Below, in pieces: positions 52,601-61,600 of a DNA stretch of 64,000 bases. Source of the DNA: Escherichia coli (lineage in GTDB: Bacteria > Pseudomonadota > Gammaproteobacteria > Enterobacterales > Enterobacteriaceae); assembly GCF_045037415.1 (NCBI RefSeq), contig NZ_CP173438.1, one strand, 5' to 3'. Every line of letters starts with the position of its first letter. Positions within the stretch are counted from its first letter, which is position 1. Made by a program: the position numbers.

Positions 52601-55600
52601 GAAGCCGGTGAGTTTAAGTGCGGTCAGTTGTTCGTAAAGATGATTCATCATTGGATCCCGTATCAGTGGTAATACTCACTGCCGCGTACGTTTTCGTGTT
52701 CCATCGTGGATAACAGATCTGGTTTTGGATCCTGAACAGGTTGTTTATCCAGACCTTTTTCCAGGATCGATTTAATACCTGACAGACGCCATACCTTTGT
52801 TTTCAGAGCTCTTGCACATGCTGCATTAAGTCTGGCTTTACTGTATTTTTTATGAAGGTTCAGGAGTCCAAGGCAGAAGCGATAGCTTTGTTCCGGATGT
52901 GGACGAGAGTTCAGTATATGAAGCACATAACTATGAGTTTCACTGCCTATGTGCCCCGCCCATTCCAGAAGACGCTCTGGCGTCCAGGTGGCATGCTGTC
53001 GATGAGCTTCAGGCATGTGCTCGTTGCGGGTACTGTAGCCATAAGTACGCTTGCGCGGGTGCACAGCAACCTCCTGCCCCTGATTGAAGAGTCTTACCAG
53101 TTCTCCGGAGATCCATGCTTCCAGTTGCTGGCCTAACAGCGAACATGGAACCGAGTAGTAATGTTTGTCGATTTCCACGTGGTAATCGGCATGAACTCTG
53201 ACTTTCTTCACCAGGGTGTAACTGTAACTGGCTTCAGGAAGAGGCTTCAGTGCGGGTTTATCAAGCTGGATGAAGAGTTCTGCACGTGAATAACCCAACT
53301 TCTGCATTATTTTGTTATTCAGTCTTTCCAGCAACTCCCGAATGCGCTGATTAAGCGATGCAAGGCTGTAGAAGATCTCATGCCTGATTCGGGCCATGAT
53401 CCAGCGTTCAACAACCTGAACGCCAACTTCAGCTTTGGCTTTATCTTTCGGTTTACGTGGCCGCGCAGGCAAAACTGCGACATTATAATGCTCAAGCATC
53501 TGCTGGTAGGTAGGGTTAACGTCAGGATCATACTTACATGCCCTGGATGTGGCGCTTTTCAGATTGTCCGGAACAACAAGTTCAGGAACGCCACCCAACC
53601 ACTGGAAGCAGCGAACATGACTCATCACCCAGTCTTCAAGCTGCTGAGACCAGGTGGCCTCTGCCCATGTGTAACTTGATGCCCCGAGAACAGCTACGAT
53701 GACCTGAGCAGTTCTTATTTCTCCGGTCTCAGGGTCGGTAACGCCAACGGTAGGTCCACAGTAATCAACGAAAAGTTTTTCGCCAGCTTTATGTACCTGA
53801 CGCATTGATGGTGAAGTGGTTTTGAGCCATTCACGGTACATCCGGCAGTAATGGTTATAGCTGTAAAAACCGCCTGGATTACGCTCACAGTATTCTTCCC
53901 AGAGTAGCTGCAGCGTCACGCATTTATTACGCAGTTCCCGGTGTACTGTAGCCCAGTCAGGCAGAGAGTGCTTCTTCATCTTAACCTGGGTCTGAAGGAA
54001 CGCATGTTTTAGTTTTGTATCATCCCATCCTGTAGGTAAGGGCCACTGCTTTATGCCAAGTTGAGCCGCCCGATTAGCATATCTGGATACAACGGAAGGG
54101 GAGATTGCAAGACTACGACCAATTTGTCGATGGCTGAGTCCAACACCGTATTTAAGCCTAAGAATTTCTTTAAGTTTTCTCATAGAAATTGGAACTGTTG
54201 GCATAGGTATCCTTTACCGGAATGGCAAAAGATACAGATCAACACACCTGTGAAGTTCCAATAACATTGATGGAGATCACTGAATAACAAAATGAGTCAA
54301 AAGTGATCTCCATCGATGTTATTCAGCGATCTGTTCAAATGTTATTACCCGATCTCGATGGAAGTTATTGAGTGATCTCCTTTCATGAAAATACGCAGGT
54401 GCGAAGGCCGGACTCAAACATGCGATTTAACCTCATGATTTAAAATTGTTAATAATAAACAACACCATCCTATACCAACACAGATACCAACACGAAAAAT
54501 CACTGGTTTTCGGCATCGAACCAGGACAATCAGGTCCTGATTGAGATACCGAGCTCTGTTACTCGTCATCTTCCTCGACAGGCTCCATTGCATCAAGTGG
54601 TACTCGCACCATCGCGATAGAACCAATCCGGATAAAAGCATCTTCCCCATCTATATCGGTTAACTGATATCGCTTACTTGATGCCGGATAATTGTGTCGA
54701 TTGGCAACAGTGTACTCTTTCGTACAGCCAGAATGTGGCAGACTGAGGTGGAATAGATAACGTCCGTATGCCCGCTGACCACCTCCGGGCGGGAGAGTGT
54801 GGTATCTGACATCATCATTTTTCCTTTCTGTTTATAAATGAAAATGCCAGCCGTGTTCAGGCTGACGTCAGGGAAGTGAAATCGGGTGAGTGATCTTCAC
54901 TGGTTCTGGTACAAAAGTTACTGTTGGCGCAGGGTACGGATACCCTCCCTGGCCTGTGCGATACAGGGCAACAGTGCTGCCGAATCTGTTTTATCCTCAT
55001 CGTTGTCGAAGATAATTCCCGATTCGCAGTCGATATTGTCCTGCAGCCACGTAATCAGAATATCCAGCGCTGTTTCCGTGGTTAATGATTTCATGTTGTG
55101 AATTTCCGGATTACCAGTCGAAAGTGGGTAAACCCGGCAGATATCCGGCACTGGCATCCAGATGAATGAGACTGACACCATAACACCGGATGAGTGTGAC
55201 GACCAGACGACGGAACGTTTTTGACAGCCCCAGGCGCTTAAGCCGCAGAACCGGGTATGACCACGTATCGGTACGTAACAGATAACCGGTACCGGTAAAA
55301 TGAATCCATTCTGATTCACCGAAGTCACTGGTCTGGTGTGACAGCGAGTACAGCCAGGCGTTGTCCGTTTCCGTGATATGTGCGGTACTGCAGCGTATGC
55401 CGGTAAGGGCAACAAATGGTGGCGTGCAGTCTGCTGAGGTCCGGTCAGATTCATCAACAACACGAAGGGAGTAGCCGTTATCGCAGACCATGTTAATCAG
55501 TTCAGCGAGATTAACACCATCAATGTCAACGACAATGCGCCCCATGTTCAGCGCCTGCACGTTAACGCTGTCGGCTTCCAGCGTCAGGGCCAGTTTCATC

Positions 55601-58600: not shown

Positions 58601-61600
58601 CCCCCGGAGACTGACCACAGACGCATCCGTTCTGACAGACGAACCTGAAGTAACCCGGCAGCATCTGGTAGCTGGAGGTACCGTCATGGGAGTTGAGCAG
58701 AATGATTTCAGGGACATGTTCTCCGTTTATCTCTCCGGCCCGCCGCAGACGCAGCATGTGTTTTGTGTATCCCCGGCGGCCCGGGTCGCGCACACGGGTC
58801 TGGCAGGCGAAGAATGGCTGAAAGCCTTCCCGCTGCAGGCTTTCCAGTACGGTGATGGTGGGAATGTACGCATATCGTTTACTGCGGGAAGTATGCCGGT
58901 CTTCACCGAAAATACTGGGAACATAGTGCATCAGTTCTTCGTGTGTCAGCGGACGGTCACGGCGTATCTGGTTCGTATAACCAAAACGACTGGCTAGTCG
59001 CATAATTTGCTCCTTATCGGTGGTTAAGATTTACTGGTGTAATAAATGAAAAAGCCACGTCTCCCGGAGAAGACGCGGCCTGACAGATGAAATGAATGAC
59101 GTTTATTGTCTGAGAAGCCCTTAACTGGCGAGCTGAGTATTAAGCTGTGTTCCGGCATCACCAGCGCAACTGACCTTCAGCATTACGGATAACCAGCCGG
59201 GAATATGTTCCCTGGTCATCTTCAGTAAACACATTGCGGTAAGCTGTTTTGACGGCAACAGCCTGTTCGCGTGAGAAAGGGCCTTCGGGCAATAAACGTG
59301 ATGTACAACCCGGCATATCTGTTGCTCCCTGAAAGTAAAAAGCCCCGGTCATGATGACCGGGGCCTGAAGGAGAGTGACCTGATTATCAGAAAGTCACAT
59401 TCAGCGTGGCCTGACCGTTATAACCTTCAGCGCTGCTGCCGCTGACGCTGTGGGCATAACCGCCCTGAACGCCCAGGGTGATATTTTCCCGGATACGGGC
59501 TTCCAGTCCGGCCTGCAGGTCCAGTGACGTGCCATTCCGGGACGGTGAGAACGTCATGTTACTGCCGGCTGCGGCTGTCCCCATGCTCATGTCACCCCGG
59601 GAGCTGAAGGTGCGGATAACAGAAGGCTGTACCCACCAGTTCACCGGCAGTTCACTCACACTGTGTTTTGCACTGTCGCGCAGGGTGTCACGGGATGAGG
59701 TGCCTTCACCAAAGCTCATATCGTTGTGGCTGCCCAGACGGAAACCGGCACGCACATGTTGTGCACTGCCATGCCCGAACTTCACATAACCGGCGTTATC
59801 CTGGCCGTCATCCAGGGAGAGTCCCTGCCAGGTGTACTGCAGTTGTGGCTCCAGCATCAGATTGTCAGTGATACTGAAGGGCAGACCGGTTTCCAGTGAG
59901 CCCAGCCAGCCCCAGCCCCGGGCGCGGAAGTCGTTATTGTCCGATGACGCTTTCATGCTGTGACGGGTTCCCTGGGCCACAATGTCAGCCCACAGGCCGG
60001 AGGATGTGTGTACCAGATTCAGGTATCCGCCCAGACTGCCGGCATCATCCCGGACCGTGCCGGCGCGGGAGCCGTCATCATCCTTAACATCAACGGAAGA
60101 ATGGCCTGCGGCACCATACACCCCTGTCGTCAGAGACATACCGGCAACCTCTGTTCTGAGCAGGTCACCCTCCAGACGGACGAAGCCATAGCTGCCGCTG
60201 CTTTCCGGCGTGGCTCCACGGGCAATACCGCCGTTGTTATCGTGACCGAGATGACCGCCCTGAATGCTGAGACGGACGCTGTTATTTTCACCGTTTACAC
60301 CGGTCTGATGGCTGCGGGAGCCTGCCAGAATCCGGTCATAGTCCATTGCCTGTGTCAGCATGGATGTATACAGGGGGACTTCAGCACGATAAGCATTTTC
60401 ACTGCGCAGGTACCAGTCTTCATCGCTGTCACGGTTCAGGGTGTAGTTAAAGGCGCCGGCCTGAAGCGGGCGACTCAGGGCAAACGCACCTTCTTCTGTG
60501 GTGGCGCCATTCTGTGCATCCACAACCCGGATACCCTGTCCGGAGGTTGCCACCCCAAGGTTACTGTTTCCGACATTTGTAAACGCAAGCCAGGTTTTGC
60601 CGGTTGCCTGACCACCATTAATCACCAGCTGGTCAGAGGTATTGCTGCCATCAAGGCGAACACGCATATTGATGGTGCCACCCTGACCGGTGAGGTTACT
60701 GGTGGTCAGTTTATGGAACGTTACCGGGGAGTCGCCTTTTGCAACAGCACGGCTCAGCGCGGCATCCGGTGTCGTCTGATTATCAAAGCGAATCTCCCCT
60801 GCGTTAACAATATCGCCGGTACTGACCACATCACCATTCAGTACCATGCTGGCACCTTTACTGAGCTGTGTTCTGCCACTCAGATTTCCCCCGGCAGCCA
60901 GCGTCAGTGTTCCACGATGTCCGACAGTGGTGTTGCCAGCCTGTCCTCCGGCATTAACCGTAAAGCTGCCGCCATTTTCCAGCAGCAGGCCGCTGGCCTG
61001 ACCGGAGATACCATCAATACTGAACTTACCGCTGGCATTGGTCCCCTCAACAGTGGCACCACTGTCTGCTATCAGGGCACCACCGGATGTCATGGTGACA
61101 TCTGTTGCCTTACCACCGGCAGACACTGCCAGGATACCGCCGTCATCCACCAGGGTATTCTGCGCTGAATGGCCTTCCAGTACATCCAGGCGACCACCGG
61201 ACTCCAGAACAACACCGTCAGCATTACCGTTTTCCACAGTGAAATTGCCCAGACGGTTGCTGCCGGTGACGGTTGCCGCCGTACTGGTGACCAGTGCGCC
61301 TCCCTGCTTCAGGGTGACATTCGTGGCTGTACCACCGGCGTTCACCTGCAGTTTGCCTTTCTGGTTAACGGTGGTGAAATCCGCCAGACCACCTTCCTTG
61401 ACAATCTGCCAGCCGTCACTGTTTACAACCGTGTCAGAGGCTGTGCCTCCGTTGTGCACATACTGGTAACCGCCATTCAGTGTGGTATCCAGCGCATGCC
61501 CGTGTACCGTCTGGTCGCCGCCGGCATAAACCACAGTGGTATTTGCTGTTCCTTCAGCAGCCACAATCTGACGACCATTTTTATTGATGGTGGTACGTAC

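Follow-up and report, generated by a model that had tools for sequence, protein, structure and literature searches.

Among the described systems closest to the block of toxin-antitoxin, RadC-like and antirestriction genes treated here are the following two. The first comprises the regions CP4-6, CP4-44 and CP4-57 of Escherichia coli K-12. In CP4-57 (yfjX-yfjY-ypjJ-yfjZ-ypjF) and CP4-6 (yafX-ykfG-ykfH-yafW-ykfI) an ArdB-type antirestriction gene, a RadC-like gene, a DUF987 gene, an antitoxin and a toxin follow each other in the same order, and the toxin end adjoins an attachment (att) site, with ypjF beside the ssrA fragment psaA and ykfI beside thrW (PMC5371832). The CP4-57 run yfjXY-ypjJ-yfjZ-ypjF has been described as one operon, lfgABCDE (PMC10846083). 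The second is the genomic island (GI) published under the name GI-leuX (PMC4134206, PMC4659465), known from the sequence type 131 (ST131) strain EC958 (Totsika 2011; Forde 2014, 2015). We have analysed a stretch of 64,000 nucleotides of E. coli (NCBI RefSeq assembly GCF_045037415.1, contig NZ_CP173438.1), called the window in what follows, which carries such a block at 54918-59003. We believe it very probable that this is one intact copy of an accessory block that occupies the integrase-distal (att) end of P4-integrase-type, tRNA-integrated E. coli islands, here the leuX island of the B2/ST131 lineage.

Gene order and setting of the block

The sequence-only reading had placed eight genes here, from a YafZ-like gene (DUF932) to a small reading frame (DUF957). 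All lie on the minus strand, and the listing of open reading frames (ORFs), the Pfam matches and the RefSeq annotation bear out both their coordinates and their order. The block and its immediate surroundings are composed as follows (window coordinates, strand, lengths in amino acids, aa; PGAP is the Prokaryotic Genome Annotation Pipeline):

59121-59352, minus: DUF905, frameshifted pseudogene (PF06006 positions 2-46 of 70; "frameshifted" in the PGAP annotation of identical genomes)
58185-59003, minus: DUF932 gene (YafZ/YfjQ-like), 272 aa (Pfam E 1.1e-51)
57953-58185, minus: small Cys-rich ORF, a frameshifted remnant in the gap between DUF932 and ArdB (match to a Klebsiella plasmid ORF)
57370-57843, minus: ArdB/KlcA-family antirestriction gene, 157 aa (PF03230, E 2.4e-37)
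56878-57354, minus: RadC-like gene with a JAB/MPN metalloprotease fold, 158 aa (PF04002, E 3.7e-44)
56594-56815, minus: DUF987 gene (YeeT-like), 73 aa (Pfam E 1.5e-40)
56063-56431, minus: CbeA, YeeU-family type IV antitoxin, 122 aa, GTG start (PF06154, E 8.2e-53)
55596-55973, minus: CbtA toxin, 125 aa (PF06755, E 4.4e-62)
55111-55599, minus: DUF5983 gene (full-length YeeW-like), 162 aa (PF25638 and PF19419, E 1.6e-31 and 1.1e-20)
54918-55094, minus: 58-aa ORF named DUF957 by PGAP in identical genomes
54846-54866, minus: terminator-like hairpin 3' of the last gene (consensus scan, a pattern match only)
54398-54419, minus: remnant of the tRNA-leuX 3' end, an att-like boundary (14-nt exact seed, E 0.028, extending to 22 of 24 positions)
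51817-54397, minus: ISEc12 (IS21 family, istA/istB), inserted into the att remnant (junctions defined against an ST131 genome free of this insertion sequence, IS)

The span 54918-59003 runs exactly from the DUF957 stop to the DUF932 start, and the boundaries of the module are the same in the RefSeq annotation of a 100% identical genome (strain 4993). The Pfam E-values of the module proteins, from 1e-21 to 1e-62, are far beyond chance, all eight named genes are full length when compared with the Pfam profiles and with their K-12 or Klebsiella homologues, and the module is present in a single copy within the window (tblastn). DUF932 stands apart, separated by 340 bp from ArdB, after which a tightly spaced run extends to DUF957 (successive gaps of 15, 62, 162, 89, -4 and 16 bp, the start of DUF5983 overlapping the cbtA stop by four bases). 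Terminator-like hairpins were found only 3' of DUF932 and 3' of DUF957, in a consensus scan that gave 11 such sites where 4.5 were expected, a modest enrichment. Because of this spacing, and of the homologous operon in CP4-57, ArdB, RadC/JAB, DUF987, CbeA, CbtA, DUF5983 and DUF957 most likely form one operon, predicted to end at the hairpin ca. 50 bp past DUF957.

The order had been read as that of the conserved module of several cryptic prophages, and the block is indeed colinear with CP4-6, CP4-57 and, in part, CP4-44. The name "CP4-44-like" holds for some of its genes. RadC, DUF987, CbeA and CbtA are close to their CP4-44 relatives (98.6, 97.3, 89.3 and 87.1% aa identity, respectively), but DUF932 and ArdB are without a CP4-44 counterpart, and within K-12 they find one only in the CP4-6 and CP4-57 copies, at 67-75% aa identity. 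In CP4-44 the place held in the window by DUF905, DUF932 and ArdB is occupied by yeeR, and downstream of the toxin YeeW is cut to 64 aa, whereas the DUF5983 protein of the window, 71% identical to this truncated form, has 162 aa. CP4-57 and CP4-6 carry DUF932 and GTPase genes upstream, as the window does, but their proteins are only 62-82% identical to those found here, extra genes (yafY, ykfB, yfjR-W) lie between DUF932 and ArdB, and the toxins are shorter (109-113 aa) and are not followed by DUF5983 or DUF957 genes. Judged from these comparisons, the module of the window is a mosaic and a more complete version, CP4-44-like in its second half only.

What the window carries is an intact copy of an accessory gene block already known from E. 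coli ST131 and its relatives, where it closes the leuX genomic island. Many E. coli O25b:H4-ST131 chromosomes show 100% identity to the window, both over the 4.7 kb around the block and over the final 20 kb, and the cbeA-cbtA segment is 100% identical also in Nissle 1917 and ATCC 25922. By the annotation of an identical genome, the window belongs to the region that leads from fim, nan, sgc and yjh to leuX. Locus and genes are those of GI-leuX in EC958, where the GTPase, Cah and DUF932 proteins have the same WP accessions as in the window (in the portion of the record covered); in strain 4993 the accessions coincide across the entire block. The locus is ordinary and already described, with one and the same annotation in hundreds of genomes of ST131, Nissle 1917 and other B2 strains. 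IS content is what differs. Compared with the EC958-type island, the window has ISEc12 in the att remnant and ISEc52 splitting an Eco31I-type endonuclease, while in other ST131 genomes ISEc12 splits RadC or ISEc23 is inserted upstream of ArdB, in the gap after DUF932, and in Nissle 1917 ISEc52 splits McrB. The different positions of ISEc12 and ISEc23 among sister ST131 genomes point to IS movement within the ST131 lineage. The 3.7-kb repeat shared by GI-leuX and GI-selC of EC958 (PMC4134206) was considered as a possible copy of the module and rejected, as its EC958 coordinates lead to the upstream segment with hypothetical-protein and GTPase genes.

The conserved arrangement (GTPase ... DUF932 ... 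ArdB, RadC, DUF987, antitoxin, toxin) is found in the window together with a tRNA-derived att site beside the toxin end. The leuX remnant lies ca. 500 bp beyond DUF957, and its original downstream flank is now at ca. 51770-51811, past ISEc12, whose 5-bp target duplication (GGTGC) is seen at 51812-51816 and 54398-54402. In the IS-free ST131 genome the leuX match goes on past CACCA and reaches a flank that is terminator-like and similar to the one of K-12 leuX. The remnant is the distal att expected of a leuX-integrating element, and it parallels ypjF/psaA and ykfI/thrW of K-12. A solo 35-bp sequence at 51099-51133, within a stretch rich in pseudogenes that separates the methyltransferase genes from the IS, is identical to the ISEc12 terminal repeat at 54363-54397 and may have been left by an earlier IS21-family event.

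Blocks of this kind are common in the species. Matches were found at 14,670 places in 5,027 of the 5,426 complete E. coli genomes, 14,663 of these places being chromosomal. A count of paralogous modules, the check that the sequence-only reading had proposed, gave the cbeA-cbtA pair in 5,061 of the 5,426 genomes. Its copy number has a median of 3 and reaches 15 at most; in genomes that carry the identical cbeA-cbtA allele it is 2-6, most often 3.

The encoded proteins

The toxin-antitoxin pair is the best known part of the block. The CbtA_toxin domain is matched over its full length (PF06755, profile positions 1-112 of 112), and CbeA, directly upstream on the same strand, matches the solved structure of YeeU (PDB 2H28, E 6.8e-74) and also that of YfjZ. 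The K-12 pair of CP4-44 (YeeV/YeeU) belongs to the same Pfam families and has the same antitoxin-then-toxin order, with a gap of 88 bp where the window has 89 bp. From K-12 proteins that are 87-89% identical, CbtA would be expected to bind FtsZ, and possibly MreB, halting division and elongation, and CbeA would oppose it indirectly by bundling and stabilizing the filaments. Located at the end of the island, the pair would help to keep the island in place.

Two residues bear on the targets of the toxin. Phe65, which is required for FtsZ binding in CbtA, YpjF and YkfI (PMC5624674), is retained in the CbtA of the window and is invariant in its alignment with the K-12 toxins. Residues 6-16, on the other hand, differ from K-12 CbtA, and at position 15 the alignment shows Cys, as in YpjF and YkfI, in place of the Arg of K-12 CbtA. 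In the latter, R15C specifically abolishes MreB binding and turns the lemon-shaped cells into filaments, but YpjF with its natural Cys15 still binds MreB, and C15R is without effect in YpjF and YkfI (PMC5624674). It may be that the natural Cys15 CbtA of B2/ST131 strains is an FtsZ-only toxin that gives filamentation and not lemon-shaped cells.

The ArdB protein matches PDB 2WJ9, deposited as an "intergenic-region protein", with an E-value of 2.2e-108 and about 6 differences in 157 residues (ca. 96% identity, read from the printed alignment), and KlcA (PDB 2KMG) with an E-value of 1.2e-19. We regard 2WJ9 as the ArdB of E. coli CFT073. The window protein is similar to this ArdB of CFT073 pathogenicity island (PAI) II across all 157 residues, the two being six substitutions apart. 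In CFT073 the protein is listed as ORF14, of 157 aa, and KlcA and ArdB proteins act in vivo against type I restriction (PMC2836571); ArdB is without effect on type III systems or on bacteriophage exclusion (BREX) (PMC10149784). Given the activity of the family and the near-identical solved ArdB, the protein would block type I restriction as island DNA enters a new host. The neighbouring RadC-like protein has 98.6% aa identity to YeeS, 82% to YkfG and 77% to YfjY/LfgB, and its translation contains an intact JAMM motif, E...HxHx7Sx2D, read as "HPREV...HNHPSGEVTPSKAD". LfgB/YfjY has been reported as a protease of the antitoxin MqsA (PMC10846083), and with this motif the RadC-like protein would be a Zn-dependent JAB protease.

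The rest of the block is much less characterized. DUF932, with ca. 74% aa identity to YafZ and YfjQ, has relatives in 5,361 clusters at 50% identity; its AlphaFold2 model is confident (predicted local distance difference test, pLDDT, 93.5), and a comparison of this model with solved structures gave no significant match. DUF5983 has 1,095 relatives, of which the best 120 listed are, with one exception (a partial match), at least 83% identical over the full length. The AlphaFold2 model of this protein, from 34 homologues all at least 83% identical, had a pLDDT of 34.6 and was unusable. DUF987 is the 97.3% identical counterpart of YeeT, and the 58-aa DUF957 ORF has 73% aa identity to its homologue on a Klebsiella plasmid (NZ_CP082976.1). 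The Pfam copy used gave no match for this ORF, nor for two small ORFs (84 and 72 aa) of the same plasmid. The 84-aa one identifies the Cys-rich remnant: it matches positions 58185 to 58027 with 58% identity and then 58021 to 57953 in another frame. It is intact in the Klebsiella plasmid, and in the window its first frame runs stop-free into ArdB. K-12 has a pseudogene, ypjI, annotated at this same place upstream of yfjX. DUF905, with 57% aa identity to K-12 YkfF, is frameshifted in all the identical genomes examined. An NCBIfam search gave names to the RadC and GTPase proteins only, and PADLOC found no defence-system model that matches the eight module proteins or DUF905; the upstream GTPase weakly matches LeoBC/LeoA.

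Other explanations for the block

Several points weigh against reading the block as an intact copy at the att end of the leuX island, or limit what can be drawn from it. Neither leuX nor the integrase of the island falls within the window, which contains no tRNA gene. The published definition of GI-leuX takes in the restriction genes (PMC4659465) that lie past the remnant, so the island is a composite one and the remnant is a border between its parts, not its outer limit. A consensus scan for promoters did no better than chance (6 sites, with 4.7 expected), and for this reason the structure of the operon is deduced from the spacing of the genes and from the CP4-57 homologue. Five of the module genes are without known function. 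With Cys15, the dual FtsZ and MreB mechanism of K-12 CbtA may not transfer unchanged to the toxin of the window. Finally, the evidence for the LfgB protease is weak according to its own authors, who worked with insoluble protein and overnight digestion (PMC10846083).

A wider part of the main reading concerns the upstream half of the block. DUF905, DUF932, ArdB and RadC would form an "entry/establishment" set shared with the leading regions of conjugative plasmids, which have been described as "anti-defence islands" (Samuel et al. 2024, PMC11541004). The entire gene order is kept, at ca. 70% nt identity, in a conjugative IncFIB/HI1B plasmid of Klebsiella (NZ_CP082976.1), where it reads DUF905, DUF932, the 84-aa ORF, ArdB, the 72-aa ORF, RadC, DUF987, YeeU, CbtA, DUF5983 and DUF957, with an intact DUF905 adjoining DUF932. 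More than 4,400 conjugative plasmids have distant DNA matches, which in the sampled rows correspond to DUF932 (yubP in one record) or to the JAB gene. The IncF plasmid pHN7A8 has DUF932 and DUF905 homologues between traM/SLT and psiB/ssb, a stretch that we take as the leading region, with an intact DUF905 between psiB and ssb, and in an IncL/M plasmid a JAB gene lies near an antirestriction gene. The likeness lies in the DUF932, DUF905, ArdB/KlcA-type and JAB genes, often accompanied by a toxin-antitoxin pair. However, no oriT, relaxase, ssb or psiB is annotated beside the module, DNA identity is just 64-74% over single genes, and a literature search combining DUF932 with "leading region" found nothing. 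That DUF905, DUF932, the decayed Cys-rich ORF, ArdB and RadC/JAB constitute one anti-defence cassette for entry and establishment, common to tRNA-integrating islands and plasmid leading regions, is a tentative idea, and we would sooner expect it to fail than to hold.

The block might also be a relic that is decaying and has lost its function, with genes that are by now silent or inactive. DUF905 and the small Cys-rich ORF are both frameshifted, sister ST131 genomes have ISEc12 splitting RadC or ISEc23 between DUF932 and ArdB, and K-12 copies contain truncations such as yeeW and yeeP. We consider this improbable all the same, as the eight named genes are all full length in the window, and the preservation of their order in Klebsiella despite the divergence in sequence implies selection. 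Moreover, expression and phenotypes are documented for K-12 homologues (PMC10846083, PMC5371832). In Nissle 1917, after plasmid curing, the DUF932 gene yfjQ was strongly up-regulated together with a 948-aa Ag43c, both in the transcriptome and by quantitative PCR (PMC11056357), and we infer that this yfjQ is the DUF932 copy at the locus of the window.

Slightly less probable still is a true bacteriophage remnant, in which these genes would be phage morons. K-12 annotates the three homologous regions CP4-6, CP4-44 and CP4-57 as cryptic prophages, PHROG families exist for DUF932, ArdB, RadC and DUF987, and a gene of the "inovirus Gp2 family" lies within the same island. The PHROG numbers of the module families are, however, high (above 10,000). 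Numbers of this size mark small families. Among 50,697 phage records a single one matched at the DNA level, a dubious and unannotated fragment of 3.2 kb, and the annotation of the 48 kb around the module contains no gene for capsid, tail, terminase or lysis functions. The presence of the whole module inside the conjugative Klebsiella plasmid, and of DUF932, DUF905 and JAB relatives in plasmid leading regions, also speaks against a phage origin. "Prophage", the word used for the block at first sight, survives as a historical label only; the element is a tRNA-leuX-integrated genomic island.

The sequence-only reading had also pointed out that the antirestriction gene lies only about 10 kb from a restriction/McrBC island. 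The restriction genes of the window are:

41469-44823: McrBC (McrB intact in the window)
44933-47925: Eco31I-type (GGTCTC) type IIS endonuclease, split by the IS3-family ISEc52 at 45518-46767
47938-49128: Eco31I-type m5C methyltransferase, intact
49121-50743: Eco31I-type m6A methyltransferase, intact

The distance was well estimated (from the start of ArdB it is 6.6 kb to the m6A methyltransferase, ca. 9.4 kb to the endonuclease and 12.5 kb to McrC), but the link that it hinted at is not supported. The leuX remnant lies between the two groups of genes, which therefore belong to two distinct, neighbouring units of a composite island. Only 633 genomes have the methyltransferase pair, once each, so that, with 14,670 copies of the module in 5,027 genomes, at most ca. 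4% of the copies can adjoin this pair, and adjacency is not a property of the module. That ArdB is functionally tied to the Eco31I-type and McrBC genes, controlling or counteracting them, is the least credible explanation of all: the short distance of 6.6-12.5 kb and the common membership in GI-leuX as published (PMC4659465) favour it, but the remnant separates two integration units, the neighbours are type IIS and type IV systems (PMC4659465) while ArdB inhibits type I and has no effect on type III or BREX (PMC10149784, PMC2836571), few copies of the module can have such neighbours, and the endonuclease of the window is already broken by ISEc52. The proximity is most likely coincidental. Nissle 1917 shows the reverse of the window, with ISEc52 in McrB and an intact endonuclease, and the two insertions look like independent knock-outs of different restriction genes of the same island.

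Neighbouring genes and significance

Upstream of DUF905 the window continues with three more features:

59387-62233, minus: Ag43/Cah autotransporter adhesin, 948 aa, annotated cah (74% aa identity to K-12 Flu)
62252-62488, minus: IS102/IsrC small RNA locus (Rfam RF00124, 68.1 bits against a gathering score of 46)
62581-63453, minus: GTPase family gene (YeeP/YkfA/YfjP-like), part of the conserved island backbone (52% aa identity to YfjP and YkfA)

The GTPase gene is annotated as "GTPase family protein" in an identical genome, and over residues 142-231 its product has 100% identity to what remains of the yeeP pseudogene in CP4-44. The IS102/IsrC match overlaps the regulatory region of agn43, where three GATC sites are found at ca. 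62455-62485 on the minus strand. Three GATC sites upstream of agn43 are the classic Dam/OxyR phase-variation switch. The adhesin gene occupies the same locus as a 948-aa Ag43/Cah-family gene of Nissle 1917, and the latter is probably the Ag43c of the plasmid-curing work, also of 948 aa (PMC11056357). Distant from the module, at 19269-19355 on the plus strand, there is a group II intron match (Rfam RF00029, 64.9 bits); at the corresponding position genome 4993 has ISEc52 annotated and no intron, and the source strain of the window may differ from 4993 there.

The locus is of little weight as a discovery, since its key members (CbtA/CbeA, ArdB, the RadC-like LfgB) are already studied and the annotation is identical in other genomes. 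Only mildly new are the att remnant that sets the block apart from the restriction genes, the natural Cys15 allele of the toxin and the orphan fold of DUF932. The remnant reveals GI-leuX as composite, with its restriction genes a unit apart from the antirestriction gene. The Cys15 allele provides a ready test of the MreB-binding determinant. If an entry and establishment cassette does exist, DUF932 would be an uncharacterized anti-defence factor or one acting in the entry of single-stranded DNA. The copy of ST131 and Nissle 1917, in which a full-length DUF5983, DUF957, DUF932 and ArdB are found together, is more complete than any of the K-12 copies, and so it serves better for work on the roles of the unassigned genes.

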